Shown: one piece after another, positions 6,041 to 28,330 of the stretch
Layout: every line of letters begins with the position of its first letter
How positions within the stretch are numbered: the first letter of the stretch is position 1
Origin: Deltaproteobacteria bacterium
GTDB taxonomy: Bacteria > Desulfobacterota > Dissulfuribacteria > Dissulfuribacterales > QOAL01
Assembly: GCA_026991135.1 (NCBI GenBank)
Contig: JALXCD010000095.1
Coordinates: forward strand, 1-55,818
Length of the DNA: 55,818 nt
Reading direction: 5' to 3'
Notes under the pieces: generated by a model
Seen by the model: the letters and a program-made list of their open reading frames with translations, nothing else
Told to the model about the DNA's origin: nothing
The model's database searches: none
Program-made: the position numbers and the translations under genes

Positions 6041-9000
6041 TTTTGGAATATTTCCGAATTTTAAGCTTTTCTGTTCCAAATATTCCTTGAGCGCCCTTCC
6101 TGTCTTTGTCCCCTTTTCCAAAAGGCCTTCCAGGGGACCCTGGTAAAGGAGTTTTCCGCCAAACCTTCCACCCCCTGGGCCAAGGTCAATTATCCATTGG
6201 GCCCTGCTGATTAGTGCAAGATTATGTTCCACTACCACAACTGTATTTCCTAAATCCACAAGCCTTTTAAGACAATCCGATAGCCTTTTTACATCCTCAA
6301 AATGAAGCCCAACACTTGGCTCATCAAGTAGATAGAGCTTTTTTGCCCCTTCTCCCTTTGAAAGCTCCTTTGCAATCTTTATCCTTTGGGCCTCTCCGCC
6401 TGAAAGGGTTGGGCTCTGCTGCCCCAAGGTAAGATACCCTAGGCCAAGGTCCCTTAGGGCCTCAAGCCTTTTCCTAATACCTGGTATTGCCCTAAAATGT
6501 TCAAGGGCCTCATTCACAGTAAGACTCAGGACATCACTTATATTTAGCCCCTTCCAAGTGCAGCCAAGACTCTTTTCATTGAACCTCTTGCCCAGGCAGA
6601 CTTCGCAGGTTGTAAGGACATCTGGTAAAAGCCCAAGTTTCTGCCTTATAACCCCCTGTCCCTTGCAACCAGGGCACATCCCTTCCTTTGTATTAAAGGA
6701 AAAATGGGATGCATTAAGTCCATTCATCCTTGCAAGGGGTGTTCTTGAAAAAAGGTGTCTTATCTCTGAAAAAAGCCCAACAAAGGTTGCCGGGCAGGAA
6801 CGAGGTGTCCTTCCGATTGGGCTGTGATCTATCTCATAGATGGTCTTAATCTCATCTGCCCCTAAAATCCTTCCTACCTTTATATCTTCCTTCCCTTTTA
6901 TCCTGGCAAGGACCCTTTCAAGGAGGGTGGTCTTTCCTGAGCCAGATACCCCGGTGATAAATGTTAGGGAATTTAAGGGAATTTTTATGTCTATATCCTT
7001 GAGATTATTTTCTGAAATGGATTTAACTTCAAGCCACTTGATCTCCTTTCCAAAGGTTACGCCTTTTTCCCTCTTAATTGGTGCCAAAAAGGCCCTTGCA
7101 GTCTTTGACTCCTTACACCTTAAAAGCCCTTTAAAATCTCCTGAAAAGATAACCTCGCCCCCCTCTTTTCCTCCGCCAGGTCCAAGATCAACAATAAAAT
7201 CCCCTTCCCTTATGGTATCTTCATCGTGTTCCACCACAATTACACTATTTCCAAGAGTTGAAAGCCTCTTTAGGCTATTTATCAGGCGCCTGTTGTCAGC
7301 GGGATGAAGGCCAATTGTTGGTTCATCAAGGACGATCGTAAGGCCAGTAAGGGATGAGGCCATCTGGCTTGAAAGCCTTATCCTTTGGGCCTCTCCCCCT
7401 GAAAGGCTTTCCCCTGACCTATCTAGGCTTAGATATCCAAGGCCAAGTTCATTCATAGTCTTTAGACGAAAGATGATCTCTTCAAATAAAAGCCTTGAAA
7501 GCTCCCTTTTTTCAGAAAAATCCCCTTTTAAAAGCCTTTTAAAAAAGGTAAGGGCCTCATTTATCTCCATGGAAAAGATATCTGAGATGTTTTTCCCATC
7601 TATCTTCCAAAAAAGGGCCTCTTTACTGAGTCTTGAGCCGTTACAAAGATCACAGGGACTTCCATCATCCTGGGTGCCAAGCCCAAGGCATTGGGGGCAG
7701 CGGCCTGACTTTGTATGAAATGAAAAAAGAAGCGGGTCTGGTGATGGCAGAGATATAAGACAGGTCTTGCAAAAATACCTGGTGCTAAGGGGAATTTCCT
7801 CCCCGTCCTTTTCAATAAAAAACTCCCCTGAACCCAGGGTCAGAAATCGGGAAATATCTTCCCCAGAAAGACCCTTATGATCCCTTTTAAATGGGCCAAA
7901 TACCCAGTCAATGGTATGTTCTCTATATCTTGAAAGGGGCACACTTTCCCCCTTTTTAAAAAACCTTCCATCCACCCTCACCTCCTCTGCACCAATGCCA
8001 AAGCCCCTTTTTATCTCTTCCTGGTGCCATCCCTTTCTGTTTTTTATCCTGGGGACAATTATCCTTGCATCCCCCTTTGACAAAAGCATCCTTGCAGTTT
8101 CAATGATCTTTTCTTTTGGCACCCTTTTCATCTCCTTTTTGCACTTTGGGCAAAAGGGGCTTGAGAGATTTGAAAAGCAAAGCCTCATGTAATGAGCAAC
8201 TTCACTTAGGGTTGCCACTGTGGACATGGGGCTTCCACGGCTGTTTTTCTGCTCAATGGCAACGGAAGGGCTAAGGCCCTCTATTTCATCCACATCAAAC
8301 CTTTCAAATAGCCTTACAAACTGCTTCATATAGGAAGGAAGGCTTTCAAGGTATCTTCTTTGGGCCTCTTTAAATATCAGGTCAAAGGCAAGGGATGATT
8401 TCCCTGAGCCAGAGACCCCTGTTATCACCACAAACCTTCCCTTTGGGATGTCTATATTTATGGATTTAAGATTATGGTGCCTTGCCCCCCTTATCTTTAT
8501 AACATCCCTTTTAATTTCCTTTTGAATAGACCTATTTGGTGAGACAGGGCCCTTTACGGGTTCCTCTTTTTTCCTTTTAAAAAAGCGGCTTGTTGGCGTA
8601 TCAATCCTCAAAAGATTATAGGGCGGGCCTTCATAAAGAACCCTTCCACCCCTTTCACCACCTTCTGGACCTAGCTCAATGACCCAATCGCTTCTTGCTA
8701 TTACAGAAAGATCATGTTCTACAACTACTATGGTATTTCCAAGCCCCCTTAGCCTTTCAAGCTCCTTTAAAAGTCCCCTTATCTCCCTTGGGTGAAGTCC
8801 CTTTGTGGGTTCATCTATGATGAAAAGGGTCCTTTCTCCGCCTTTTCCCATTAAAAGTCCCTTTGAGATCTTTAGCCTTTGGGCCTCTCCGCCTGAAAGG
8901 GTGTTAAGGGGTTGACCTAAAAGAAGATGAGAAAGTCCAAGGCCTAGTGCAGGAGAAATGGCCCTTTGGATGGATTTTTCATCCTTAAAGAATTCCCCAA

Positions 9001-11257
9001 CCTCCCTAAGGGTCATGTTCAAAAAATCATGTATGTTTTTCCCCTTATGCTCTATCAAAAGGGCCTTTTCCCCAAATCTTTTCCCCTTGCATGCCGGGCA
9101 GGTAAGCATCATGTCAGGCAAAAACTGCATCTCCACCAATTCGTAACCCTGGCCCTTGCATTCAGGGCATCTTCCTCCATCCACATTCAATGAAAAAAAG
9201 CCAGGGGTTAAGGAAAGGGCCCTTGCGGCCTCCTCCTTAGAAAGGATTTTTCTTATTGGGTCAAGTATCTTTAAATACGTGCCAGGGCAGGCCCTTGGTG
9301 TCTTTGTTATGGGCTCTTGGTTAATAAAAACTATTTTCTCAAAGTAATTTTCCCCTACAATCTCATCAAATTTTCCAACTTGCTGGGCCGGAAGCCCCTT
9401 TTTTCTTAAAAGGCCCCCGTAGAGACAGGTTTCGATAAGGGTGGATTTGCCAGAGCCAGATACGCCGCAAACACAGGTTATTGCGCCAACAGGAAACCTG
9501 CAGTCAACTGACTTTAGGTTATTCTCCCTTGCACCCTTAATTACTAAAAAGTCCTTAAAATCCCCTTTTGTCTTCCTTAAGAAGGTATTTGGTAAATGGT
9601 CATCCTTTTTATCCTCTTCATCCTTTACCAAATAACCCCCTTCCTTGCCTGAGCCTGGACCAAGGCCAATTATCATATCAGCCCCCCTTTTTAAAAAGGG
9701 GTCGTTTTCAACCATAAGGACCGTATTTTTTGCCTCTTTTAGCCCTGAAATGACTCCAGAGAGTCCCTCTATGTCCCTTGGATGAAGGCCACTTGAGGGT
9801 TCATCAAGGCAGTAAAGGGTCTCTGAAAGCCTTGTGGACACACCCTTTGAAAGGCAAAGCCTAGAAAGCTCACCTCCTGAAAGCGTCCTTGAGGCCCTTT
9901 CAAGTGTAAGATAGGTTAAGCCTGCACCCTTTATGGTCTTTAACCTTGTCTTAAGGTCAAAAAGGAGATTTTCTGATGCCTTGTTAAGCTTTATCTCCCT
10001 TTCAAGCCCTTCACACCAGGATATGGCTTCATGGATGTTGAATCTGTAAAATTCCCCAATATGAATCCCATATAATCTAAAGGAGCGAGCCATTTCATTA
10101 AATCTGGTCCCGTCACATGAAGGGCACCTTTTATAGGCCCTATATCTTGAAAGGAGTATGCGGATGTGGGCCTTGTACCTTTTGGTCTCAAGCCAGTCAA
10201 AAATCTCCTTTATTCCATACCAGTCACCTCTTCCAAAGATAATGGCATCCCTTTGCTCCTCGGTCAGTCCCTTCCAAGGTCGATCAAGGGGAATGCCCTC
10301 TTCAATGCAAAAATCAAATAAAATCTCCTTTTCTTCCGGCCAGTTTTCTAAGGGCCTTATTGCACCGTCTTCAAGGCTTAGGGCCTTATTGGGGATAACA
10401 AGGTCCCAGTCGATTTCAATGACCCTTCCAAAACCACTGCAGGTGGGGCATGCCCCTTTAGGGCTGTTAAAAGAAAAAAGAAGTGGACTAGTCCTTTTGG
10501 GCTGGTATTTGCATTTTGGACAGGTCCAGTTGCTGAAAAATTCAATGTTTTTTCCATCAATTAAAAGAGAGATCTTTCCATTTCCCAGATTAAAACCTGT
10601 TTCAACAGCCTCCCTTACCCTTTCTAACCTTATCTCCTTTAAAGAAAATCTTTCAATTACAAGAAAAAGTTCCTTTTCTTGGGAAAGCTCGTGCCAGAAT
10701 CCATCAATAAATGAAAGGTCAATGGTTTTTCCCTTGTAAATTGCCCTTTGAAAGCCCTGTTCCCTAAAGGCCGGAAGTCTATCTGAGGAGGTATTAATGG
10801 CAATAATTGCCCTTTTTACCCCTGATTTTTGGGCATCGAGCATCCTTTTAAAACAGTCTTCAGCACTGTCTTTTCTAAGAGAGATTTTGCACTTGGGACA
10901 AAAGGGAATGGCATTTTTAAAAAAGAGCATCCTTACTGGATATGTGATCTCAGAAAGGGTGGCAACGGTTGATCTTGAGTTTTTTACAGGGTTTGCCTGA
11001 GAGATGGCAATTGCCGCTGGCAGGTTTTTAATCTCCCTTATTTTGGGCCGCGGAAGCCTTTCAAGAAACTGCCTAGCATAGGGAGAAAAGGTCTCTATGT
11101 ATCTTCTTTGGGATTCTGCATAGATGGTATCAAAGACAAGGGTCGATTTTCCTGCACCAGAAGGCCCGCTAACACATATTATGCTATTTAATGGAATCTC
11201 AAGGTCTAGGTCCTTAAGATTGTGTTCCTTTGCACCTTTTATAACCAGATTTTTCAT
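6014..11257 (-). CDS. uvrA: Double-length excinuclease ABC subunit A (two fused UvrA units)
   Basis: 1747 aa; four Walker A motifs ([16 protein letters not shown] x2, GVSGSGKT), four LSGGE signatures, multiple CxxC zinc-finger pairs. Confidence 0.93.
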
Positions 11258-11399: not shown

Positions 11400-12230
11400 A
11401 TGTCAGCAAAGGTAAGGGCAATTGTCACAACCGGATATGGGACAAACTGCGAGATGGAAATGGCCCATGCCTGCAAGGTTGCAGGGGCAGATGTGGTGGA
11501 TATAGTCCATCTAAGCGATATATTGGACGGGACCTTTAAGATAACCGACTATCATTTTTTGAATCTACCAGGAGGCTTTCTGGATGGAGATAACCTGGGG
11601 GCTGCCCAGGCCGGGGCCCATAGGCTTAAATATGCCAGGATAAAGGGAACGGGCCAAAGGCTCTTGGACCAGATACTTGAGTTTGTGGAAAATGGAGGGA
11701 TCATACTTGGAGTATGTAATGGCTTTCAGCTTATGGTAAAGACAGGTCTTTTGCCAGGCCTTGAAAAGGATTATGAAAACAGAGTGGTTAGCCTCACTTA
11801 TAACGATTCAGGAAGATTTGAAGACAGGTGGGTTACACTTAAGGCAAACCCCTCTTCTCCTTGCATATTTACAAAGGGGATAGATACCATTGAACTTCCA
11901 ATAAGGCATGGTGAAGGTAAGTTTGTTGGCCTAAATAATGAAGTGATTGATACCATCAGGGTTTCAAATCTCATAGCCCTTCAGTATGTTCATCCAGAGA
12001 CAAAGGAGCCAACAGAGGAGTATCCCTATAATCCCAACGGCTCTGTCCTTTCCATAGCAGGCATTTGTGACCCAACAGGAAGATTGATGGGCCTTATGCC
12101 ACATCCTGAGGGTTTTCATCATTTCACAAATCATCCCCAGTGGACCAGGAGATTTTGGGATCAGGAAGAAGGTGCAGGCATAGGCCTTTTTAGAAACGGT
12201 ATAGAATATATAAGGCGAAATTGCCTGTAG
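11400..12230 (+). CDS. purQ: Phosphoribosylformylglycinamidine synthase glutaminase subunit
   Basis: GTNCE, PGGF, GVCNGFQ, PNGS and MPHPE motifs. Confidence 0.95.
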   Translation: MSAKVRAIVTTGYGTNCEMEMAHACKVAGADVVDIVHLSDILDGTFKITDYHFLNLPGGFLDGDNLGAAQAGAHRLKYARIKGTGQRLLDQILEFVENGGIILGVCNGFQLMVKTGLLPGLEKDYENRVVSLTYNDSGRFEDRWVTLKANPSSPCIFTKGIDTIELPIRHGEGKFVGLNNEVIDTIRVSNLIALQYVHPETKEPTEEYPYNPNGSVLSIAGICDPTGRLMGLMPHPEGFHHFTNHPQWTRRFWDQEEGAGIGLFRNGIEYIRRNCL

Positions 12231-12241
12231 GCCCTAAAAAT

Positions 12242-12985
12242 ATGGTTCAAGAGGCCGCCTTTAATAATGAGGCTGGTGAGACATCCAGAGAGGATACACC
12301 AGCAAGAAAGATTGCCCTTTTTCTCTATAGATTTAGGCGATTTCTCTTTGAAATAGTTACACTTTTCCTTGTCCTAACCTTTTTTTTCTATTGGTATGCC
12401 CCTGATATCTTGATTTTTCTTCAATTGGAGCTTGATCAAAAGCTTGCCTTTTTTGGGGTCATGGAGCCCATAATTGCCCTTATAAAGATCGCAAGCACCT
12501 GTAGTATTGCCATACTTATGCCCCTTATCCTTTGGAGAATAGCACAGGTCCTGGTGGAGGCCTTTGGATTAAAAAAAAGGGCAGGGGTATTAATGGTCCT
12601 AACCGCCTTGGTACTTTTTTATTCAGGTGTATTGTTCTGTTTTTTTATTACCCTTCCCTTTGGGATAAATTTTCTTTTAAGCTATCAGTCCCAGGCCGTA
12701 AAACCTGTAATAAGCGTAGGGAAGTTTGTAAATTTTGTTGGCCTTTTTTTATTAGGTTTCGGTATTATCTTTGAACTTCCCCTTATAATGACATTGACAT
12801 GCAAGTTGGGCCTATGCAGTTATAAAATGTTTCAAGGGGGAAGAAGATATGCCATCTTGATAATTGCAATTCTTGCAGCCATTTTGACTCCAACCCCTGA
12901 TGTAATAAATATGTCCCTTATGGGCATTCCCCTTTATCTCCTCTATGAACTGGGGATATTGGTAGCGCGTTTAAGCTCAAAATAG
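12242..12985 (+). CDS. tatC: Twin-arginine translocase TatC (copy 1)
   Basis: Six hydrophobic segments; FELP, RRYA, AAILTPTPD, PLYLLYE motifs. ATG 12242 preferred. Confidence 0.85.
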   Translation: MVQEAAFNNEAGETSREDTPARKIALFLYRFRRFLFEIVTLFLVLTFFFYWYAPDILIFLQLELDQKLAFFGVMEPIIALIKIASTCSIAILMPLILWRIAQVLVEAFGLKKRAGVLMVLTALVLFYSGVLFCFFITLPFGINFLLSYQSQAVKPVISVGKFVNFVGLFLLGFGIIFELPLIMTLTCKLGLCSYKMFQGGRRYAILIIAILAAILTPTPDVINMSLMGIPLYLLYELGILVARLSSK

Positions 12986-13093: not shown

Positions 13094-13154
13094 GTGACAT
13101 TTCTAAAAAAATTTTTTGAGTTATACTACTGCCAAAGGGCGAAATAAGAAGTTT

Positions 13155-13691
13155 ATGCAGACGCAAACTCATATTCAGGTATCAGATATCCCTGAAGAGG
13201 GGCTTTTTCTAAATTTTTTGGAGCTTTCTTCTCTCCTTCCAGGGGTAGATGAATATACCAAAATAACAAGTGCTAAAGGCAGGCTAGAGATACATAAAAA
13301 GGCCCAGGATGTTGAGATAATCGGTCATGTGGAGGCCAAGGTTAATCTCACCTGTGATAGATGCCTAAATCACTTTGAAAGGAAATTTGAGGCAGATTTT
13401 TTCTATCTCCTTCAGCCCAGGGAAGAATTTGGAAGAGGGCTAAAGGAAGAACATCAACTTACCAGCGACGATATAGACGTCTATTGGTATGAAGAGGGGC
13501 TCATAAAGGGGGAGGAGCTTTTTAGGGAGCAAATACTCCTTCAGTTACCCATGAGGATAATTTGTAGAAAGGATTGCAAAGGGCTTTGCCCTACTTGTGG
13601 AAAGGACTTGAATAAAGGAAAATGCAATTGTCAAGATGACCACAGTGACAGTCCCTTTGCAGTTCTTTCAAAATTAAAGGTTGCAAGCTGA
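13155..13691 (+). CDS. yceD: DUF177/YceD family protein
   Basis: CDRCL and CRKDCKGLCPTCG motifs; conserved position before rpmF. ATG 13155 chosen. Confidence 0.9.
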   Translation: MQTQTHIQVSDIPEEGLFLNFLELSSLLPGVDEYTKITSAKGRLEIHKKAQDVEIIGHVEAKVNLTCDRCLNHFERKFEADFFYLLQPREEFGRGLKEEHQLTSDDIDVYWYEEGLIKGEELFREQILLQLPMRIICRKDCKGLCPTCGKDLNKGKCNCQDDHSDSPFAVLSKLKVAS

Positions 13692-13907: not shown

Positions 13908-14915
13908 ATGGCTGTAGCCCTTGATGCAATGGGCGGAGATAGGGGGCCTGGCCCCCTTGTAGAAGGGGCTGTAGAGGCTGCACGGGATTTTGGTATTGAA
14001 GTAATCCTTGTAGGGGATAAACTCATCCTTGAAAGGGAACTTGAACGGTTTAAGGCGCATGATCTTCCTATCCATATTCAACATGCTTCCCAGGTTGTGG
14101 ATATGGCCGAAGCCCCGTCTGAAGCTCTCAGGAGGAAAAAGGATTCCTCCATTCGTGTTGCCTTTAATCTAGTCAAGGAAGGTAAGGCCCAGGGGGTGGT
14201 TAGCGCTGGAAATTCTGGTGCCACCCTGGCAACGGCCATGTTTGTCCTTGGAAGAGTAAAAGGCATTAGGCCGGCCATTGCTACCCTGATTCCGACCTTA
14301 AAAGAGCCCGGTCTTATGATAGATGTAGGGGCCAATGTGGATTGTAAGCCCCACCACCTGCTTCAGTTTGGAATAATGGGCTCTCTTTTTGTAAAGGAGT
14401 TTTTGAAAAAGTCTTCTCCCCGAATTGGCCTTTTAAGCATCGGTGAAGAGGACAGTAAAGGAAATCAGCAAGTAAAAAAGGCCTATGACTTTCTAGCAGC
14501 GGCAGATTTGAATTTTGTTGGAAATGTAGAAGGCAGGGATGTATTTAAGGGTGATGTTGACGTAATTGTCTGTGACGGATTTGTTGGAAACATTTGTCTA
14601 AAGCTCAGTGAAGGCCTGGCAGAGACGGTTCTTACCATGCTAAAGAATGAGATCGAGGGGAATCTATTAGCTGTAATGGGATACGGCCTTGCAAAAAAGG
14701 CCTTTAGGCGTTTTAAACAAAGGGTGGATTATTCAGAATATGGAGGGGCTCCACTTCTGGGTGTAAAGGGGACGGTGATTATTTGTCATGGGAGGTCAGG
14801 TCCAAGGGCCCTTAAAAATGCCTTAAGGGTTGCAGATAACCTGGCAACCTTAAATCTCTCTGAAAAACTTCAGATCTCCATCTCAGAGCGAAAGGATTTT
14901 CTGAGGATTGTTTAA
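13908..14915 (+). CDS. plsX: Phosphate acyltransferase PlsX
   Basis: ALDAMGGD, SAGNSGA, DVGANVD, DGFVGN, HGRS motifs. Confidence 0.97.
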   Translation: MAVALDAMGGDRGPGPLVEGAVEAARDFGIEVILVGDKLILERELERFKAHDLPIHIQHASQVVDMAEAPSEALRRKKDSSIRVAFNLVKEGKAQGVVSAGNSGATLATAMFVLGRVKGIRPAIATLIPTLKEPGLMIDVGANVDCKPHHLLQFGIMGSLFVKEFLKKSSPRIGLLSIGEEDSKGNQQVKKAYDFLAAADLNFVGNVEGRDVFKGDVDVIVCDGFVGNICLKLSEGLAETVLTMLKNEIEGNLLAVMGYGLAKKAFRRFKQRVDYSEYGGAPLLGVKGTVIICHGRSGPRALKNALRVADNLATLNLSEKLQISISERKDFLRIV

Positions 14916-14925
14916 TTCCAAGCAA

Positions 14926-15909
14926 ATGTGTCCAAGATCCAGGATAATCGGCACTGGCTCTTTTGTGCCAGAAAAGGTCCTTACAAATAAGGACCTTGAA
15001 TCCATGATAGATACCAGTGATGAATGGATTACAACAAGAACAGGCATAAAGGAAAGACACATTGCAGCAGAAGGCGAAAACAATTCAGACCTTGCCATTT
15101 TGGCCTCAAAAAGGGCCCTTGAAATGGCAGGAATAGATGGCAAGGACCTTGATCTTATAATTGTAGGTACTCTGACACCTGATATGCCAATGCCGTCTGT
15201 GGCATGTCTCGTCCAGTTTGCCCTTGGTGCCAAAAAAGCAGGTGCAATGGATGTTTCAGCCACCTGTTCCGGGTTTCTCTACAGCCTTTCCATTGCAGAT
15301 AAGTTTGTAAGAGTAAATCCTCAAATGAAGATCCTTGTTATTGGAAGCGAGGTCCTTTCAAGACGGGTTAACTGGCAGGACAGGACAACCTGTGTCCTTT
15401 TTGGTGATGGGGCAGGGGCGGCAGTTGTCACAGGTGGAGATGGAAACGGGGGTATAATATCCACACATCTTCATGCAGACGGCTCTGTTTGGGAACTATT
15501 GACAATAAGAGGGCTTGGAACCAAGTATCCAATTGACCAGGAGATACTTTCAAAGGGCTGGCAGTATATTGAGATGCAAGGAAGGGATGTTTTTAAACAT
15601 GCAGTCCGCGCCCTTGAGTCAGTGACAAACGAAGCCTTAAAGGCAGCTGGCTGGGAAAGGCCAGACCTTGACCTTTTGATTGCCCATCAGGCAAATATCA
15701 GGATACTGGAATATTTAAGGGAAAGGCTTGAACTTCCAAGGGACAAGGTCTTTATCAATATCCACAAGTATGGTAATACCTCAGCGGCAAGTGTTCCCAT
15801 AGCACTTGATGAGGCCAATAGATCCGGGAGACTCAAAAGGGGAGACAAGGTCTTGATGATCTCCTTTGGAGGAGGGTTTACCTGGGCAGGTGTTACCATG
15901 GAGTGGTAG
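14926..15909 (+). CDS. fabH: 3-oxoacyl-ACP synthase III
   Basis: Catalytic ATCSGF, HQAN and GNTSAAS motifs. Confidence 0.96.
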   Translation: MCPRSRIIGTGSFVPEKVLTNKDLESMIDTSDEWITTRTGIKERHIAAEGENNSDLAILASKRALEMAGIDGKDLDLIIVGTLTPDMPMPSVACLVQFALGAKKAGAMDVSATCSGFLYSLSIADKFVRVNPQMKILVIGSEVLSRRVNWQDRTTCVLFGDGAGAAVVTGGDGNGGIISTHLHADGSVWELLTIRGLGTKYPIDQEILSKGWQYIEMQGRDVFKHAVRALESVTNEALKAAGWERPDLDLLIAHQANIRILEYLRERLELPRDKVFINIHKYGNTSAASVPIALDEANRSGRLKRGDKVLMISFGGGFTWAGVTMEW

Positions 15910-15945: not shown

Positions 15946-17109
15946 ATGGCAAAGGTTAACTATTTTTTGACAGAAGAGCAGCAAATGATTGTGGATCTTG
16001 CCCACCAGATCGCTGTTGAAAAGATTATACCGGTCAGGGCAAGGCTGGATGAGATAGAGGAATTCCCATGGGACATCATGAAGGATCTTGCCCAGGCAGA
16101 CCTTTTTGGTCTTTATATTCCTGAGGAATACGGAGGACTAGGCGGAGGGTGTTTTGAAAACTGCCTTGCTGTGGAACAACTTGCCTATGGATGTATTGCA
16201 GTAACCACAACCTTTGCAGCAAGTGCCCTTGGGGCCTATCCTATCGTCCTATTTGGAAATGAGGAGCAAAAGGAAAGGTATCTTTCAGATATTGCTTCTG
16301 GAAGACGTCTTGCCGCCTTTGGTCTTACAGAGGCTGGAGCGGGAAGTGATGCAGCAGGGATTAAAACCACTGCAGTAGAGGACGGAGACTATTGGGTTTT
16401 AAATGGCACTAAGCAGTGGATAACAAATGGTGGAGAGGCAGAGGTCTATACCATAATCGCCCTTACTGATAAAAATAAAGGTGCTAGAGGTGCTTCGGCC
16501 TTCATAGTGGAAAAGGGGGACGAGGGCTTCAGCTTCGGAAAGAAGGAGAAAAAGATGGGGCTTAGGGCCTCTGCCACAAGGGAGCTTATTTTCAGTGACT
16601 GTCGCATTCCAAAGGATAGACTCCTTGGGCGAAGGGGGGCAGGTTTTATAATAGCCATGAAGACCCTGGATCTTGCCCGCCCTGGGATCGGCGCCATTGC
16701 CGTTGGCCTTTCCCAGGCTGCCCTTGATGAGTCAGTAAATTATGCAAGACAGAGGGTCCAATTTGGCCAGCCCATCATATCTTTTCAGGCAATTCAGCAC
16801 ATGCTGGCAGATATGGCCACCCAAATTGAGGCATCTAGGGCCCTGGTCTATGCCATCGCAAGGACAATAGATGCAGGGGAAAAGGACATTTCAAAGCTTT
16901 CTGCAATGGCAAAGCTCTTTCCAACCGATGTGGCCATGAAGGTCACAACAGATGCCGTTCAGATACTTGGAGGCTATGGATATATGAAAGAATATCCGGT
17001 AGAAAAGATGATGAGAGACGCCAAGATACTTCAAATTTATGAGGGCACCAATCAGATCCAGAGAAATGTGATTGGCCAGGCCCTAAACAAGGAATATGCC
17101 AGAAGATAA
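15946..17109 (+). CDS. Short-chain (butyryl-CoA dehydrogenase-like) acyl-CoA dehydrogenase
   Basis: FGLTEAGAGSD, GTKQWITNG, KMGLRAS, IYEGTNQIQR (catalytic Glu). Confidence 0.93.
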   Translation: MAKVNYFLTEEQQMIVDLAHQIAVEKIIPVRARLDEIEEFPWDIMKDLAQADLFGLYIPEEYGGLGGGCFENCLAVEQLAYGCIAVTTTFAASALGAYPIVLFGNEEQKERYLSDIASGRRLAAFGLTEAGAGSDAAGIKTTAVEDGDYWVLNGTKQWITNGGEAEVYTIIALTDKNKGARGASAFIVEKGDEGFSFGKKEKKMGLRASATRELIFSDCRIPKDRLLGRRGAGFIIAMKTLDLARPGIGAIAVGLSQAALDESVNYARQRVQFGQPIISFQAIQHMLADMATQIEASRALVYAIARTIDAGEKDISKLSAMAKLFPTDVAMKVTTDAVQILGGYGYMKEYPVEKMMRDAKILQIYEGTNQIQRNVIGQALNKEYARR

Positions 17110-17113
17110 GGTC

Positions 17114-17902
17114 ATGAATATTGTAGTTTGCATCAAACAGGTGCCAGACGCAGAGAGCGTCAAATGGGATCATAAGACAGGAACTCTCATAAGAGACGGG
17201 GTAAAAAGCGTAATAAATCCCTTTGACTATCATGCCATAGAGGCGGCCTTGACCCTGAAGGATGAACTTGGAGCAAAGGTCACTGCCGTAACCATGGGGC
17301 CTCCACAGGCCGAAGAGGCCATAAGAGAGGCCATGTCCATGGGGGTAGATGAAGGGGTAGTGGTATCAGACAGGGCCTTTGCAGGCTCTGACACCCTGGC
17401 CACCACCTATACCCTTTCAAGGGCCATTAAAAGGCTTGGGGATGTGCATGCGGTCTTTTGCGGAAAACAGGCCATTGACGGCGATACTGCCCAGGTTGGG
17501 CCAGGGCTTGCAGTTCGTCTTGGAATCCCCTGTGTTACCTATGTATCGGAAATGGAAGTTATTAATGGCGGTAAAGGCCTTAGATTAAAAAGGCTGAAGG
17601 AAGACGGCTTTGATATGGTGGAGGTGGACTTTCCGGTCCTTGTGACCACCTTGTCAACTCTAAATACCCCCAGGGTTCCTTCTTTAAAGGCAAAGATGAA
17701 GGCAAAAAGGGCAAAGATTCCTGTTTGGACCGCCGGCGATATAGGGGCAGATAAAAAAAGGATAGGGCTTAACGGCTCTCCCACTAAGGTCCATTCCACC
17801 TACATACCAAAGTTTGAGGCCAAAAGGGAGTTTTTGGAGGGAAGCCCAGAAGAGCAGGTGGATGCCCTAATTAAGAGACTTAAAGAGGCAGGTGTCATTT
17901 GA
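17114..17902 (+). CDS. etfB: Electron transfer flavoprotein beta subunit (bifurcating-type motifs)
   Basis: VCIKQVPD, SDRAFAGSDT, GKQAIDGDTAQVGP. Confidence 0.93.
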   Translation: MNIVVCIKQVPDAESVKWDHKTGTLIRDGVKSVINPFDYHAIEAALTLKDELGAKVTAVTMGPPQAEEAIREAMSMGVDEGVVVSDRAFAGSDTLATTYTLSRAIKRLGDVHAVFCGKQAIDGDTAQVGPGLAVRLGIPCVTYVSEMEVINGGKGLRLKRLKEDGFDMVEVDFPVLVTTLSTLNTPRVPSLKAKMKAKRAKIPVWTAGDIGADKKRIGLNGSPTKVHSTYIPKFEAKREFLEGSPEEQVDALIKRLKEAGVI

Positions 17903-19098
17903 TGCTTAGGATAGATATTGAAAAATGTATAGGCTGCGGGGAATGTGAAGAGGTCTGTAGCTTTGGCGCCATAACTATAGTTGATGACAAGGCAAGGGTG
18001 GATGAAGAATCCTGCACCCTTTGTGGCACCTGTGTGGATACCTGCCCTGAAGGGGCCCTTTCAATAGAAAAGGAAGGCGCTGAAGAGCTTGATCTTTCTT
18101 CCTGGAAGGGTGTCTGGGTGGTCTCTGAGATCAAAAACGGCCTTTTTTCCCCTGTAACCTTTGAGCTTCTTGGAAAGGCAAGGGAACTGGCAGACGCCAG
18201 AAATGTGCCATTAACGGCAATACTAATGGGATATGGCTTAAGGGATAAGGCAGATGAACTGATATCAAGAGGTGCTGACAGGGTAATAGTTGTCGATTCC
18301 AAAAGGCTTTCAGACTTTATTGATGACGCCTATGCCAGGGTTCTGGCACATCTTGCAAAAAAGGAGATGCCTGAAATAATCATTGCAGGGGCAACTGCCA
18401 CAGGAAGGGCCTTTATTCCCCAGGTTGCCACAATCCTTGAAACAGGTCTTACTGCAGACTGCACTGGCCTAGAAATTGATAAAGAGTCCGGTCAGCTTCT
18501 TCAAACACGTCCTGCCTTTGGCGGAAATTTAATGGCCACAATAATATGCGATACAAGGCGCCCCCAAATGGCAACGGTTCGGCCCCATGTCCTTAAGGCC
18601 CTTGAACCGGATACCTCAAGAAAGGGCGAGATAGTGGATTTTGAACCTCCTTCTGAGCTTCTGGATTCAAGGATAAAGGTCGTAGAGTCAGTAACCGAAG
18701 AGCAGAAAGGGCCAGGTCTTACTGAGACAGAGATAGTGGTTACTGCAGGAAGGGGCCTTGAAAAGAAGGAGAATCTAAAACTTGTAGAAGAGCTTGCCCG
18801 GTGTCTTGACGGGGCAGTGGGGGCCACCCGTGCCATTACCGATGCAGGCTGGATATCTCATTCACACCAGGTTGGCCAGACCGGGGTTACAGTTTCCCCA
18901 AGGCTTTATGTTGCATGTGGGGTTAGCGGGGCAATCCAGCACCTTGTGGGTATGCAGGGCTCTGAAATAATTGTGGCAATCAATAAGGATAAGGATGCCC
19001 CCATCTTTGATATTGCCACCTATGGAATAGTTGGGGATGTAAAGGAGATTTTACCAATATTATCCAAAAAGATATGTAAAGAGAGAGGACTTGATTGA
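17902..19098 (+). CDS. etfA: Electron transfer flavoprotein alpha subunit with N-terminal 2x[4Fe-4S] ferredoxin domain
   Basis: [11 protein letters not shown] and [12 protein letters not shown], then [33 protein letters not shown] overlap with etfB. Confidence 0.93.
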
Positions 19099-19853
19099 TG
19101 TGTGAAAAGGCCTTGGCAGGTAAAAATGCCCTTGTAACAGGTGGGTCTCGCGGAATAGGAAGGGCCATTTGTCTAAAGCTTTCTGAGATGGGAGCCCATG
19201 TGGCAATAAATTTTACATCAAACAAGGAGGCGGCAGAGTCTGTAAAAAAAGAGATAGAAATAAATGGTGGCACAGCCACCCTTTTGCCCTTTGATGTCTC
19301 CGAAAAGGAAAAGGTCAAGGGGGCCATATCCCAATTTATCAAGGAAAAGGGGCCAATAGAGATTCTTGTAAATAATGCTGGTATCACCAGAGACGGGCTC
19401 CTTTTAAGGATGAAAGAAGAGGACTGGGACAGGGTCATTTCCATAAATCTTAAAGGGGCCTTTAACTGTATTCAGGCCTGTGCCATGAATATGATGAAGT
19501 GCAAGTGGGGGCGGATTATTAACATAGGTTCTGTGGTAGGGACCATTGGTAATGTGGGCCAGGCCAATTATGCCGCCTCTAAGGCCGGACTTGAGGGCCT
19601 TACAAAAACTGTGGCAAGGGAGATGGCATCTCGCGGCATCACAGTAAATCTTGTGGCTCCTGGCTTTATTGAAACAGATATGACAGCAGTCCTTCCCGAC
19701 GAAATAAAGGAAAGGCTTTTAGGAGAAATTCCCCTTGGACGAATGGGAAGTCCAAGGGAGGTGGCAGAGGCAGTCGCCTTTTTGGTATCACCTGCTGCAT
19801 CCTATATCACAGGTCATACATTGCATGTTAATGGCGGGTTAATCTGCCAATAA
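19098..19853 (+). CDS. fabG: 3-oxoacyl-ACP reductase
   Basis: [26 protein letters not shown] overlap with etfA. Confidence 0.96.
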
Positions 19854-19875: not shown

Positions 19876-20112
19876 ATGGATGTTCAAGAAAAAATCATAG
19901 ACATAATTTCAAGTCAGCTCAGTGTGCCAAAGGAAAAGGTTGTTCCCCAGGCATCCTTTACAGATGATTTGGGAGCAGATTCTTTGGATCTAGTGGAGCT
20001 TGTTATGGCAATGGAAGAGGAATTCGGTATGGAAATAGCAGATGAGGACGCTGAAAAGCTTCAGACAGTTCAGGATACTATTGATTATGTAAAGCAACAC
20101 CTTAACAAGTAA
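19876..20112 (+). CDS. acpP: Acyl carrier protein
   Basis: LGADSLD phosphopantetheine site; acidic 78 aa; AGGAGG RBS. Confidence 0.98.
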
Positions 20113-20145: not shown

Positions 20146-21402
20146 ATGACCACTAAAGACTGTAGCCGCAGGGTTGTGGTAACTGGTTTGGGAATTGTAT
20201 GTCCTGTTGGAATCGGGGTCAAGGAGAGCTGGGATAATATAGTTTCTGGCAGATCTGGGATAGACAGGGTTTCAAAATTTGACCCTGAAGGTTATGCATG
20301 TCAGATAGCAGGGGAACTTAAGGGATTTGACCCAGAAAAGTATATGTCCAAAAAGCTAATTAAAAGGCTTGATCCCTTTGTCCAGTATGCCATTGCAGCA
20401 GCAAAGGAGGCATGGGAGGATTCGGGCCTAGACATAGAAAAAGAAGATCCTATGAGAATAGGGGTAATAACAGGCTGCGGTCTTGGTGGCCTCGGAACTA
20501 TAGAGCACTATAGAGACACCTTGGTAAACAGAGGACCAAGGCGTGTAAGCCCCTTTTTTATCCCTATGGCCATACCGAACATGGGTTCCGGCCAGATTTC
20601 AATACTTTTTAATGCAAAGGGTCCAAATACTGTTGTATGTACTGCCTGTGCAGCAGGAACCCATGCCATTGGCTGGGCATTTAAGGAGATACAAAGGGGT
20701 GCTGCCGATATCATGTTTTGCGGAGGTTCTGAAGCAGTTATTACCGAGCTTGCCCTTGCAGGCTTTGGGTCTTTAAAGGCCTTGTCCACGAGAAATGATG
20801 AGCCCCAAAGGGCTTCCCGCCCCTTTGACAGAGACAGGGACGGGTTTGTTATTGGTGAAGGAGCAGGTATGTTGATCCTAGAGACTTTAGAGCATGCCAA
20901 GAAAAGGGGTGCAGATATCAAGGCCGAGATATGTGGATTTGGTCTTACAGGGGATGCATTTCACATGACAGCACCTCCTGATGATGGCGAAGGAGGGGCT
21001 AGAGCAATGAAGGAGGCCCTTGAAGACGCAAAGCTTTCACCAGAAGATATTGACTACATAAATGCACATGGTACAAGCACTCCCTTAAATGACTCTTGTG
21101 AGACAAAGGCCATAAAAAGCGTTTTAGGTGAACATGCCTATAAAATACCAGTCAGTTCCACAAAATCCATGACAGGACATCTCCTTGGTGGCGCAGGAGG
21201 GATTGAGGCGGTTTTTTCCGTAAACGCAATTTGTCATGGGGTTGTTCCTCCCACCATCAACTACGAAACCCCTGATCCAGAATGTGACCTGGACTACGTA
21301 CCAAATGAGGCCAGGGAGAAGGAGCTTAATGTTGTTTTGAGCAATTCCTTTGGCTTTGGAGGCACAAACGGGGTTTTGATTTTTAAGAAATTTTTGGGGT
21401 AA
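20146..21402 (+). CDS. fabF: 3-oxoacyl-ACP synthase II
   Basis: [34 protein letters not shown]. Confidence 0.97.
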
Positions 21403-21408
21403 TGCAGA

Positions 21409-21858
21409 ATGAAGGTTGCAATCGGCGCAGATCACGGTGGTTTTGAACTCAAGGAAGAGGTGGTAGCCTTTCTTAAAGGGCTTGGGTATCAGGTGGAAGA
21501 CCTGGGCTGTTACAGTAAGGATTCTGTTGATTATCCCCTTTATGCAAAAAAGGTAATAGAACTTGTAAAGGATGGAGGGTTTGAACGGGGGATTCTTATT
21601 TGCGGGACTGGGATTGGCATGTCCATTGTGGCCAATAGAATTCCAGGAATAAGGGCAGCCCTTTGTCATGAGCTTTTTACTGCCGAGATGAGTAGAAGGC
21701 ACAACAATGCAAATATCCTTTGCATGGGTGGACGGGTGATAGGTCCATCCCTTGCACTTGCGATGGTAAAGGTTTGGCTAGAGACCCCTTTTGATGGCGG
21801 ACGCCATGAAAGAAGGCTTTGTCAGATAGACCCTGATGATTCAATGTGTAAGGATTAA
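21409..21858 (+). CDS. rpiB: Ribose-5-phosphate isomerase B
   Basis: GADHGG, CGTGIG, HNNAN, GGRH motifs. Confidence 0.96.
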
Positions 21859-24828: not shown

Positions 24829-25191
24829 ATGTTTGGCATCGGGCTTCCAGAATTAATAGTCATATTGGTTCTTGCACTTATAGTCCTTGGGCCTGAAAAA
24901 TTGCCTCAAGTGGCAAAACAGGTCGCTCGCTTTATAAATGACCTTAAAAGGGCAACAGATGAATTTAAAAAAGAGCTTGATCTAGATAAGCTGGACGATA
25001 TCAAAAATCCAGTTAAGCTTGAAAATCTTTTGGGTGAAGAGCTCAAAGACTTAAAGGATATCAAGAAAGACCTTTCCCCACCTGACTTTTTAAAGGATTC
25101 CACTTCATCCCAGGGAGAACTTTTAGGAGGCCTGGGCTCTGAATGGAAAGAGGCCAAGGGACCTTCCAAAAAAGAGGGAAATGGAAACTAG
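24829..25191 (+). CDS. tatB: Twin-arginine translocase TatB/TatA family subunit
   Basis: MFGIGLPEL, then a TM helix, then GPEKLP. Confidence 0.88.
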   Translation: MFGIGLPELIVILVLALIVLGPEKLPQVAKQVARFINDLKRATDEFKKELDLDKLDDIKNPVKLENLLGEELKDLKDIKKDLSPPDFLKDSTSSQGELLGGLGSEWKEAKGPSKKEGNGN

Positions 25192-25879
25192 GCCCTATAC
25201 CCTGAACGACCATTTAAGCGAACTTAGGCAGAGGATCATAAGGTGCGTAATATTCTTTGTTATTTCCTTTGCATTGAGCTACGCCCTTTCAGATTACCTG
25301 ATATCCCTTTTATTTTTCCCAGTAAAAGAAAGCCTTCCCTCAGGAAGCACTATGGTTTTTACGGCCCTGACAGAGGGTTTTATGGCCTATTTGAAGGTGG
25401 CCTTTTGGAGTGCAGTGGTCATCACCGCCCCCTTTTTTATCTATCAGGCATGGCGTTTTTTGCTCCCTGCCCTCTATGATAAAGAGATAAGGGCACTTAG
25501 AAAGATAATCTTTTTAAGCGGTCTCTTATTTATTTTTGGCGCTGTATTTGGCTACTGGATAATACTTCCAACAATCCTTTCAATAAGCCTAGGATATTCC
25601 TCAGAAACCCTTAAGGCACTTCCCCGTCTTCAAAACTACCTTGTCTTCACTCTTAAAAGTATATTTCTTTTTGGGATAATATTTGAGATTCCTTTTCTCA
25701 TGGCGGGGATTTCAAGGCTAGGCCTTATTTCAGAGGGCTATTTCAAAAAAAATAGAAAGTATGCCTATATCCTTATCTTTTTAACCTCTGCCGTTCTTGT
25801 CCCTTCTGACATATTTTCCCAGATCCTTCTATTTGTCCCCATGGTGGTAGTCTATGAGATAGGGAGTCTTCTTTCCTAG
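25181..25879 (+). CDS. tatC: Twin-arginine translocase TatC (copy 2)
   Basis: HLSELRQR, YQAWRFLLPALY, FEIP, RKYA, PSD; overlaps tatB. Confidence 0.9.
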   Translation: METRPYTLNDHLSELRQRIIRCVIFFVISFALSYALSDYLISLLFFPVKESLPSGSTMVFTALTEGFMAYLKVAFWSAVVITAPFFIYQAWRFLLPALYDKEIRALRKIIFLSGLLFIFGAVFGYWIILPTILSISLGYSSETLKALPRLQNYLVFTLKSIFLFGIIFEIPFLMAGISRLGLISEGYFKKNRKYAYILIFLTSAVLVPSDIFSQILLFVPMVVVYEIGSLLS

Positions 25880-26245: not shown

Positions 26246-28330
26246 ATGACTAGTTCCACTTACAGCATTTGTGGCATGTGTGCAGTTCGCTGCCCCATCC
26301 GGGTCGAGGTAAGGGACGGCGAAGTAACCTGGATCGAGGGGAATTCAAATGATCCAGGTATGGGGACAAGCCTTTGTGCAAAGGGGATAGCGGGAAGGGC
26401 CCTTCTTTACGACCATGAAAGGCTCCAGTATCCCATGATAAGGGATGGTGAAAGGGGATCGGGTAAATGGAAGCAGGTCTCCTGGGATGAAGCCTATGAT
26501 TATATAACGTCTAAGTTAAAAGATATTATGGCCAAACATGGTGGCAAGGCAATAATGTTGAGTGACAGGGGTGGCCCCTTTGCCGATATGAGGAAGGCAT
26601 TTTTAAAGGCCCTAGGATCTCCAAACTACTGTAACCATGACTGCACTTGCGGCAGAAATACCCACCATGCTTCAAAATCTGTCTATGGACTGGGAAGGAC
26701 CGGCCTTGGCTATGATTTTAAAAATGCCAAACATATTGTCCTTTTTGGAAGGAATATGGTTGAGTCTTTTAAGGTCAAGGAAGTAAAGGCCTTCATGCAG
26801 GCAGTCAAAAATGGGGCCAAGGTCACATACATTGATCCAAGGGCTGCCCTTACCGCATCAAAATCCACAAGATACTGGCAGATAAGACCGGGAACGGACT
26901 ATGCCCTTCTTCTTTCCATGGTAAATGTCATCCTCAAAAGAGGCCTTTATGATAAGCAGTTCGTTAAAAAGTACGTAACAGGTCTTTCCGAGCTTAACAA
27001 GTTCATATCCGGTTACACGCCAAAATGGGCCGAGAAAGAAACTGGTATCCCAGCAGACGAAATCGTTCAGTTCTGTAAGGAAGTATCTGCCGATAAGCCC
27101 CATGTTATCTTTCATCCAGGCTGGCATCTTTCAAGATATACGGACTCCTTTTACGCAAGCAGGATGATTCATATCCTTAACTGCCTTATGGGTAATATAG
27201 AGGTCCCGGGGGGCCAATTTTTCCCAAAGACACCAAAGGATGCCGGCTATAAAGGGCTTAAAAGCCTTGGAGCAGATATTCCAAAGGTTGATGAAAAAAG
27301 GGCTGATGGCTGCGGATGGAAATACAAGAGATTTGACGGGGGGCCGGGCCTTTTGCAACTTATGTATGAAGTAATAGATACGGGTGAACCCTATCCGGTC
27401 AAGGCCTATTTCATTGTAAGGCATGATCCCCTTTTGGCCATGCCTGATCCAGAAGAGCAAAAGCGCATTTTGAACAAACTAGATCTTATTGTGGTGGTGG
27501 ATGTCAATTACAGCGAAAGCTTTGGCTTTGCCGATGTGGTTCTGCCTGAAAGCACCTATCTTGAACGGGACACCATAATGAGGACGGACAAGGGCTTAAA
27601 GCCAGGTTTCAGCCGCAGGAAAAAGGCAATAGAGCCAATTTATGACACAAAAGCAGGCTGGCAGATATGGACCGAACTGGCTCAGCGGCTTGGAAAGGGA
27701 GAGTATTTTCCCTATAAATCCATTGAGGATATCTGGAATTATCAGCTTCAAGATACCGGACTAAAAATTGAGGACTTTGAGGAAAAGGGCTTTGTTCAGC
27801 TTTCATCAAAACCCATCTGGTATGACCGGGATAAGTTAAAATTTCCTACAGAATCAGGGAAAATAGAATTTGTTTCCAAGAAGTTTGAAGAAGAAGGCAT
27901 CCCTTCCTTTAAGCCATACGAACCCCCAAAAAAGCCTTCTGAAGGCGAATTCAGGCTTCTTTTTGGAAGAACCGGGTACCAGACACACGGCCAGACCACC
28001 AACAATCCAATAATTTCTGAACTGATGGGCACAAACTGTCTCTGGATAAACAAAGAGGCAGCAGAAAGGCTCGGAATCAGTGACGGCCAGGAGGTCGAAT
28101 TGGTCAATAATGGAATATCCGGAAAGATTACGGCGAGACTTACCGATTTTATCCACCCAGAAGCAGTTTTCATGCTCCATGGGTATGGACGAACCATCCC
28201 ATTTCAAACAAGGGCATACAAGAAAGGCCTGGCCGATCAGGCCTTTATGAAGGGCCTTTTAAAGGTGTGGGACAAGGCAGGCGGCAGCATTGCCCTTTGT
28301 GAATCCTTTGTGAAAGTGATGCCTGCATAA
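26246..28330 (+). CDS. Cytoplasmic Mo/W-bisPGD oxidoreductase catalytic subunit (PsrA/PhsA-like)
   Basis: N-terminal CGMCAVRC...LCAKG Fe-S motif beginning at residue 9; no twin-arginine leader; NHDCTC ligand region; ADVVLPESTYLER; AAGGAG RBS. Confidence 0.88.
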   Translation: MTSSTYSICGMCAVRCPIRVEVRDGEVTWIEGNSNDPGMGTSLCAKGIAGRALLYDHERLQYPMIRDGERGSGKWKQVSWDEAYDYITSKLKDIMAKHGGKAIMLSDRGGPFADMRKAFLKALGSPNYCNHDCTCGRNTHHASKSVYGLGRTGLGYDFKNAKHIVLFGRNMVESFKVKEVKAFMQAVKNGAKVTYIDPRAALTASKSTRYWQIRPGTDYALLLSMVNVILKRGLYDKQFVKKYVTGLSELNKFISGYTPKWAEKETGIPADEIVQFCKEVSADKPHVIFHPGWHLSRYTDSFYASRMIHILNCLMGNIEVPGGQFFPKTPKDAGYKGLKSLGADIPKVDEKRADGCGWKYKRFDGGPGLLQLMYEVIDTGEPYPVKAYFIVRHDPLLAMPDPEEQKRILNKLDLIVVVDVNYSESFGFADVVLPESTYLERDTIMRTDKGLKPGFSRRKKAIEPIYDTKAGWQIWTELAQRLGKGEYFPYKSIEDIWNYQLQDTGLKIEDFEEKGFVQLSSKPIWYDRDKLKFPTESGKIEFVSKKFEEEGIPSFKPYEPPKKPSEGEFRLLFGRTGYQTHGQTTNNPIISELMGTNCLWINKEAAERLGISDGQEVELVNNGISGKITARLTDFIHPEAVFMLHGYGRTIPFQTRAYKKGLADQAFMKGLLKVWDKAGGSIALCESFVKVMPA

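Follow-up and report, generated by a model that had tools for sequence, protein, structure and literature searches.

Which enzyme carries out the enoyl reduction of fatty-acid synthesis in an anaerobe whose genome encodes no recognisable enoyl-acyl carrier protein (enoyl-ACP) reductase? The question is raised by a 55,818-nt stretch of DNA (the window, contig C95) from the genome of a vent bacterium, which comprises 2.32 Mb in 164 contigs and is rated 97% complete. An open reading frame (ORF) listing together with Pfam and NCBIfam matches gives the + strand gene order yceD-rpmF-plsX-fabH-ACAD-etfB-(ferredoxin)etfA-fabG-acpP-fabF-rpiB, where ACAD is an acyl-CoA dehydrogenase family gene and etfB and etfA encode an electron-transfer flavoprotein (Etf). 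These gene calls bear out a first-pass annotation that had placed ACAD-etfB-etfA between fabH and fabG. On balance, we favour the reading that the ACAD-EtfB-(ferredoxin)EtfA triad is an Etf-dependent, probably electron-bifurcating enoyl-ACP reductase of the type II fatty-acid synthase (FASII). The anatomy of the module, its bifurcating-type features, its position, its conservation and its distribution are direct observations, described below.

The best solved relatives of both Etf subunits, namely CarDE, the Thermotoga maritima Etf, LctBC and the Etfs of Clostridioides difficile and Acidaminococcus fermentans, are all bifurcating. Specifically, EtfA is closest to CarE of the caffeyl-CoA reductase-Etf complex CarCDE (6FAH_A, 380.6 bits), which it matches over its full length (residues 2-392), ferredoxin domain included; the T. 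maritima protein (313.5 bits), LctC (299.2 bits) and then the C. difficile and A. fermentans Etfs follow, and human Etf reaches only 151.4 bits. EtfA carries the ETF and ETF_alpha domains (PF01012, 169 bits; PF00766, 121 bits), and both of its cysteine motifs align with CarE residues 2-55. EtfB is closest to CarD (6FAH_B, 232.9 bits), the segment QAIDGDTAQVG being identical in both, and at E ≤ 1e-30 it has five solved relatives, every one of them a bifurcating Etf. We take the AIDGDTAQVGP-type motif to be the FAD/NADH site that replaces the AMP site of non-bifurcating Etfs. The structure-database matches thus agree with the first-pass annotation, which had recognised features of bifurcating Bcd-EtfAB and of ferredoxin-fused CarE; the motifs it quoted (DGDTAQVGP in EtfB, TRPAFGG in EtfA) are seen in the alignments, and the fused 2x[4Fe-4S] domain of EtfA is present as two N-terminal CxxCxxCxxxC motifs with Fer4 matches.

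The nearest solved structure to the ACAD is C. difficile butyryl-CoA dehydrogenase (Bcd; 5OL2_C, 407.6 bits, residues 10-379), and CarC scores 322.4 bits. The catalytic Glu of the YEGT motif of Bcd is kept at the aligned position; it is E366 of an E366-G367-T368 triplet that is invariant in 23 of 23 orthologs. In NCBIfam, the ACAD reaches the curated equivalog cut-off of no named ACAD. In particular, the ACAD/Etf proteins fall below the AcrABC cut-offs (AcrC, 443.4 < 640; AcrB, 241.9 < 475; AcrA, 333.2 < 600), and the ACAD falls below those of the carrier-protein dehydrogenases (264.3 < 650 and 243.5 < 500 for the RedW/PigA type; 63.2 < 700 for MbtN). With bifurcating relatives and no equivalog cut-off reached, sequence places the triad among the ACAD/Etf complexes of bifurcating type, alongside CarCDE and Bcd, but homology does not name its substrate. 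The ACAD fold lies outside the families of enoyl-ACP reductase built on the short-chain dehydrogenase/reductase (SDR) fold and the FMN TIM barrel, and therefore the enzyme, if a reductase, would represent a new structural class.

Four basic positions are specific to the ACAD clade (R31, R/K121, K200 and R/K306); they are candidates for an ACP-binding patch, or equally for an Etf interface. The median pI is no different (5.57 vs 5.55). A complex prediction for an ACAD dimer with ACP, with ortholog alignments as input, scored 0.01 (mark, 0.32) and counts neither way. The longer ACAD homologs (61, all at ≤50% identity) are tandem ACADs and ACAD-Etf fusions; many of them (P0024-P0061) are 682-687-aa proteins from Clostridiales and gut metagenome-assembled genomes (MAGs) that join an ACAD, 46-49% identical to that of the window, to an ETF-family domain.

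The enoyl reduction step in the host genome

The ACAD of the operon is the only one in the whole genome (PF00441), and the two Etf subunits found genome-wide (PF01012) both lie inside the operon. A profile search whose control was positive in 14 of 14 genomes found no 3-hydroxyacyl-CoA dehydrogenase in the genome, and the search for a thiolase returned just a sub-threshold match on FabH; there is therefore no apparent route to crotonyl-CoA. The genome has a single crotonase-fold protein, a weak match, and one FabZ.

No known enoyl-ACP reductase was found by profiles, tblastn or structure comparison, in answer to the search for fabI, fabK, fabL and fabV that the first-pass annotation had proposed. 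For FabI and FabL, PF13561 matches just FabG and one atypical SDR in the genome, and tblastn with Escherichia coli FabI (NC_000913) matches FabG alone, at 26%. For FabV, the model NF010177, which finds the true FabV of genome G183, has no match in the genome; it was used in place of the Pfam model PF12242, which matched no control genome and is uninformative. For FabK, the sole substantial NMO-family protein of the genome scores 141.8 bits against a cut-off of 453.1. We rejected this protein as a FabK reductase, since it scores 298 bits to Helicobacter pylori FabX (7E1Q-7E1S) versus 90 bits to FabK (7L00), and we rejected a second weak NMO match, which is the dihydroorotate dehydrogenase PyrD. 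According to PMC8626469, 7E1Q-7E1S are structures of H. pylori FabX, an acyl-ACP dehydrogenase/isomerase of unsaturated fatty-acid synthesis. The window holds neither fabD nor a known enoyl reductase, as had been stated; the absence of fabD does not extend to the genome, which encodes FabD on another contig (TIGR00128, 282.8 bits, cut-off 260.9). This fabD gene (G000:C103:27798-28655; L001:1486-2433) lies outside the fab operon, directly after gcvH and moaA.

Thus, the genome encodes all FASII enzymes save a recognisable enoyl reductase, and it contains no CoA-ester pathway for a Bcd. The triad is encoded among fab genes in a genome without another known reductase for the step, with the caveat that the atypical SDR is present.

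The missing CoA-ester pathway bears on a second reading, in which the triad is an ordinary CoA-specific Bcd/Etf enoyl-CoA reductase that happens to sit in the fab operon and might make saturated short acyl-CoA primers for FabH or serve an unrelated CoA-ester pathway. The nearest solved and curated relatives do all act on CoA esters (Bcd, 407.6 bits; AcrC model, 443 bits), and FabH, a user of acyl-CoA primers, is encoded immediately upstream of the ACAD. This reading has to contend with the lack of an apparent crotonyl-CoA route and with scores below every AcrABC cut-off. In addition, the ACAD persists in fab operons that lack fabH (L023, L030, L048, L079, G041 and G094), and a CoA-only enzyme would leave 39 of the 73 ortholog-carrying genomes described below without an enoyl-ACP reductase. 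We consider a CoA-only role unlikely. The supply of primers to FabH, raised as an alternative in the first-pass annotation, is disfavoured by the missing thiolase and 3-hydroxyacyl-CoA dehydrogenase and by the operons without fabH.

The FabX-like gene implies that unsaturated fatty acids arise by dehydrogenation in this organism, and the triad could in principle be an oxidative acyl-ACP dehydrogenase that forms, for example, trans-2-enoyl-ACP for unsaturated fatty-acid or cofactor synthesis, with Etf as acceptor. ACADs normally oxidise, oxidising relatives that depend on carrier proteins are known, and the models for prolyl-PCP dehydrogenase and for the acyl-ACP dehydrogenase MbtN match the ACAD with 264 and 63 bits, respectively. 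Nevertheless, FabX, which 40 of 41 relatives possess, already covers that dehydrogenation, Etfs that are ferredoxin-fused and of bifurcating type are associated with NADH-driven reduction, and the essential reductive step would be left without an enzyme. An oxidative role is, in our estimate, very improbable.

The FabX-like gene itself (G000:C10:18741-19871; L002:1441-2574) lies 36 nt 3' of a pair of genes for AsrA-like and AsrB-like Fe-S and FAD/NAD proteins (L002:27-1404) on the same strand. The order asrA-asrB-fabX recurs in 17 of 19 relatives' loci, the exceptions being one truncated locus and one without it. Since O2 is the only acceptor of FabX known according to PMC8626469, the AsrA/AsrB-like pair may be its anaerobic electron acceptor. 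The sequencing runs retrieved (nine, from three studies, one of them possibly the source) are all DNA, with no RNA among them.

Conservation and distribution of the cassette

A pattern scan of species genomes yielded at least 591 confirmed relatives, and we examined the best 80 loci, at 69-97% identity, by tblastn with the window proteins and FabD as probes. They come from Desulfobacterota MAGs, Desulfobulbaceae including cable bacteria, Desulfogranum marinum DSM 2058 (L043) and Thermodesulfovibrionia/Nitrospirota. ACAD, etf and at least one fab gene occur together on one strand in 58 of the 80 loci, 51 of them with ≥2.5 kb on both sides; the arrangement is therefore not due to chance, and the synteny that the first-pass annotation had pointed out proves to be conserved. 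One further locus has ACAD and etf only, and fabD adjoins the cassette in nine of the 80. Median identities to the window are 72% for the ACAD, 70% for ACP, 61% for FabF, 58% for FabG, 55% for PlsX, 54% for FabH, 54% for EtfB and 53% for EtfA. By this measure, no protein encoded in the operon other than ACP is as constrained as the ACAD.

Among the 41 relatives' genomes, the ACAD is present in all 41, a few copies being cut by contig ends. At E ≤ 1e-25, where FabL would be picked up as well, none of the 41 has a FabI-model match; the closed single-contig genome G028 is among them.

In a FastTree phylogeny, the 80 ACADs group in a single clade (support 0.71) into which no non-fab paralog falls, and paralogs at ≤56% identity are never fab-linked. 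The stand-alone ACADs all fall in one 26-tip Nitrospirota subclade (support 0.92), where they are interleaved with linked copies. These stand-alone orthologs (18 loci, e.g. L039:6001-7155, L038, L046, L047 and L052) are 70-74% identical to the ACAD of the window; in L039, the neighbours are housekeeping genes encoding a phosphoribosyltransferase, PTPS, a LuxR-type regulator, PilZ, a SurA-like protein and Dus, and about 6 kb around the ACAD is free of etf and fab genes. Sister to the clade, with support of 0.98, are the unlinked ACAD-etfBA triads of L108 (G070), L109 (G142) and L110 (G174). The three genomes belong to one family and measure 1.5-1.8 Mb, two being closed single contigs and one consisting of 60 contigs; their triads lie outside any fab operon, with 59-61% identity to the window for the ACAD and 33-42% for Etf. 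None of the three genomes has a match to the FabI, FabL, FabV or FabK/NMO models. A further subclade, comprising L120 (G041), L123 (G094), L125 (G145) and L048, has the order yceD-plsX/fabH-ACAD-fabG-acpP-fabF with no adjacent etf.

We searched the same 151 genomes of the phylum with every probe, counting as an ACAD ortholog a match at E ≤ 1e-148 and ≥59% identity (paralogs, ≤56%). An ortholog is present in 73 of the 151 genomes and FabI (≥237 bits) in 22, and only one of these 22 (G041) has both. By Fisher's exact test, ortholog and FabI are near-exclusive by genome (p=3e-6) and by family (p=0.0055; hand-tallied 1/30/13/32, i.e. 31 families with ortholog, 14 with FabI, one with both, 76 in total), these p-values being indicative only because kin are not independent. 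FabK is above its cut-off in five genomes, none of them a carrier of the ortholog. At the thresholds used, 28 of the 73 carriers have no FabI, FabL, FabV or NMO match, G177 being borderline. Eleven further carriers have only the weak NMO class, which is FabX-like in the genome of the window and which also occurs in eight FabI-positive genomes. Thus, 39 of the 73 carriers are without a recognisable enoyl reductase at these thresholds.

Several observations weigh against an enoyl-ACP reductase role. FabL is above its cut-off in five genomes and FabV in one, every one of them a carrier of the full cassette, so that the anti-correlation with known reductases that the first-pass annotation proposed to test is near-complete for FabI (one genome of 22) and not strict overall. 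A match to the NMO/FabK model at E ≤ 1e-45 is found in 26 of the 73 carriers and in 44 of the 78 non-carriers. Eighteen of the 78 non-carriers also lack a recognised reductase, and therefore a missing enoyl-ACP reductase is not specific to carriers; three of these 18 (G061, G169 and G106) have unlinked ACAD-etfBA triads at 49-52% identity. Among the 80 loci, three have ACAD and fab genes without etf (two truncated), and 18 have the ACAD alone (six truncated). G041 combines FabI with a fab-operon ACAD; in this genome, as in G094 and G145, no etf stands beside the fab-operon ACAD, and Etfs are encoded elsewhere, at 37-48% identity. The nearest solved relative of the ACAD is a CoA-specific enzyme. 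Finally, no ACAD-ACP or ACAD-Fab domain fusion was found among the 61 longer homologs at E ≤ 1e-100, which is weak evidence.

The reductase-less non-carriers suggest that enoyl-ACP reductases of yet other kinds probably exist in the phylum, and some such protein could serve here while ACAD/Etf has a different acyl-ACP or lipid role. The candidate is the atypical SDR (G000:C55:153-1016, L005, 287 aa), which bears a C-terminal extension. Its retention in 39 of 41 relatives is a further point against the triad as the reductase; it has the adh_short_C2 fold, and one of the reductase-less non-carriers, G116, has an ortholog of it. Across the phylum, however, SDR orthologs occur in just 13 of the 151 genomes; nine of these genomes are among the 73 carriers, and not one belongs to the 28 carriers without a known reductase. 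The protein reaches no FabI or FabL model and no curated family, its best match being pteridine reductase (129 bits, cut-off 288), and its nearest solved relative is FabG (84 bits). Read by eye, the catalytic Tyr-Lys position is Y-x3-N in place of the Y-x3-K of SDRs. No fab gene is among the neighbours, which lie on the other strand and encode an HD phosphohydrolase, a CDP-alcohol phosphatidyltransferase and a CxxCxxCC protein. The SDR cannot explain the distribution pattern in general, and invoking it leaves the fabG-coupled ACAD/Etf without an alternative role. We regard this explanation as rather unlikely. The proposal in the first-pass annotation of a bifurcating-type enoyl-ACP reductase replacing FabI is supported by these genomic tests, at the level of comparative genomics.

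Operon layout and surroundings

Coordinates of the genes in the conserved cluster and of the EtfA ferredoxin domain are listed below.

Table 1. Features of the fab operon, in window coordinates.
Feature	Position	Strand	Evidence
yceD, first gene of conserved cluster	13116..13691	+	PF02620, 104.9 bits
rpmF, ribosomal protein L32	13719..13901	+	sequence read; PF01783, 81.4 bits
plsX, phosphate acyltransferase	13908..14915	+	TIGR00182, 364 bits > cut-off 243
fabH, ketoacyl-ACP synthase III	14908..15909	+	NF006829, 433.5 bits > cut-off 249
ACAD family acyl-thioester dehydrogenase, 387 aa; candidate catalytic subunit of enoyl-ACP reductase	15946..17109	+	Acyl-CoA_dh_N/M/1 domains
etfB, small Etf subunit, bifurcating type	17114..17902	+	PF01012, 164 bits; CarD closest
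etfA, large Etf subunit with fused N-terminal ferredoxin domain	17902..19098	+	ETF, ETF_alpha and Fer4; ORF from 17899
2x[4Fe-4S] ferredoxin domain of EtfA, about residues 2-59	17902..18075	+	Fer4_7, residues 9-53; Fer4 in two stretches; alignment to CarE N-terminus
fabG, 3-oxoacyl-ACP reductase	19098..19853	+	TIGR01830, 342.4 bits > cut-off 297.75
acpP, acyl carrier protein, DSL phosphopantetheine site	19876..20112	+	TIGR00517, 104.9 bits
fabF, ketoacyl-ACP synthase II	20146..21402	+	TIGR03150, 659.6 bits > cut-off 493.75
rpiB, conserved last gene of cluster	21409..21858	+	TIGR01120, 193.2 bits

The TAG of fabH (15907-15909) is followed by a 36-nt spacer, which contains a purine-rich ribosome-binding site, ahead of the ACAD ATG at 15946, and the ACAD TAA (17107-17109) lies 4 nt ahead of the ATG at 17114. 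Although the etfB ORF opens with an ATG at 17096, the ATG at 17114 aligns to CarD residue 1 and is likely the start. Both TGATG couplings that the first-pass annotation described are read in the sequence: at 17900-17904 for the etfB stop and etfA start, and at 19096-19100 for the etfA stop and fabG start, each with a 1-nt overlap. The acpP residues D35-S36-L37 show no variation across 23 of 23 orthologs, and rpiB comes after fabF in 40 of the 80 related loci.

The flanks consist of housekeeping genes unrelated to the cluster, encoding a UvrA-like ATPase, a GATase_5 amidotransferase and TatC upstream, and glyA, alr and tatA/tatC downstream. The two tatC genes (12221-12985 and 24829-25879, both +) bracket the fab operon; tatA precedes the second, and a molybdopterin oxidoreductase gene follows it at 26246-28330. 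The UvrA-like protein (6014-11257, - strand) is 1747 aa long and has UvrA interaction and DNA-binding domains with extra ABC ATPase modules; UvrA is usually about half that length.

Proposed reaction, known counterparts and implications

In the reaction we envisage for an enoyl-ACP reductase of this kind, NADH would reduce the bifurcating FAD in EtfB. One electron would pass through the FAD of EtfA to the FAD of the ACAD, where, after two rounds, trans-2-enoyl-ACP would be reduced to acyl-ACP; the other, low-potential electron would exit through the two [4Fe-4S] clusters fused to EtfA to ferredoxin. The net reaction would be 2 NADH + enoyl-ACP + oxidised ferredoxin -> 2 NAD+ + acyl-ACP + reduced ferredoxin, so that, per elongation cycle, an anaerobe limited in energy would regain one pair of low-potential electrons. 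We infer the ACP thioester substrate, the reductive direction and bifurcation from CarCDE and Bcd-EtfAB; given a reductase role, bifurcation is fairly likely on this analogy.

CarCDE of Acetobacterium woodii (6FAH) resembles the module in its three co-encoded subunits and in having the same N-terminal 2x[4Fe-4S] domain on EtfA. However, CarC takes caffeyl-CoA in a respiratory pathway, whereas the module of the window is part of an rpmF-plsX-fab operon in a genome without a CoA-ester pathway, and its ACAD is nearer to Bcd than to CarC. Bcd-EtfAB (C. difficile, 5OL2; A. fermentans Etf, 4KPU) provides the best relative of the ACAD, shares the YEGT Glu and belongs to the same bifurcating Etf group. 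In butyrate fermenters, the Bcd-EtfAB genes accompany those for thiolase, Hbd and Crt; here, neither a thiolase nor a 3-hydroxyacyl-CoA dehydrogenase was found in the genome, and the Etf is ferredoxin-fused. Furthermore, the module is proposed to act on enoyl-ACP whatever its chain length rather than on crotonyl-CoA.

The established enoyl-ACP reductases, FabI, FabL and FabV of the SDR superfamily and FabK with its FMN TIM barrel, share with the module the proposed reaction and a place in the fab operon, and the module is near-exclusive with FabI. They differ from it in that each is one polypeptide, as opposed to three subunits with three FAD, two Fe-S clusters and an ACAD fold, and in that the module would take its electrons via Etf, with co-reduction of ferredoxin. 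That an ACAD fold can act on carrier-protein thioesters is seen in the prolyl-PCP dehydrogenases RedW/PigA and in the mycobactin acyl-ACP dehydrogenase MbtN, although the ACAD of the window scores far below their cut-offs. These enzymes oxidise their substrates, belong to secondary metabolism and are not known to be Etf-coupled. H. pylori FabX, which has a close homolog elsewhere in the genome, is likewise a FASII flavoenzyme with C2-C3 redox chemistry on acyl-ACP; as presented in PMC8626469, it is an NMO-fold FMN/[4Fe-4S] dehydrogenase-isomerase, not a reductase, and unrelated to ACAD/Etf.

Our search of the full-text literature, with subscription journals and supplements outside its range, found no paper on an Etf-dependent or bifurcating enoyl-ACP reductase. 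A Caldithrix genome paper (among PMC4916218, PMC5317091 and PMC13126070) records no close fabI homolog.

In bacterial fatty-acid synthesis, no step shows more enzyme diversity than enoyl-ACP reduction; its enzyme is a drug target, and many anaerobes are annotated without one. If the triad is indeed an enoyl-ACP reductase as proposed, it would constitute a structurally new class, and the 'missing' step of many Desulfobacterota and Nitrospirota would be accounted for. Lipid synthesis would then return one reduced ferredoxin per C2 unit to cells near the thermodynamic limit. More tentatively, and by a wider extrapolation that we hold as a serious possibility, a large share of strict anaerobes (31 of the 76 families sampled in one phylum, together with Nitrospirota) may couple FASII to energy conservation through bifurcating ACAD-Etf enoyl-ACP reduction in each elongation cycle, which would make the complex the first enzyme of core biosynthesis to use bifurcation. 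Hydride would also enter the acyl chain by another route than with FabI, which would matter for the interpretation of lipid hydrogen-isotope ratios in sulfate reducers.

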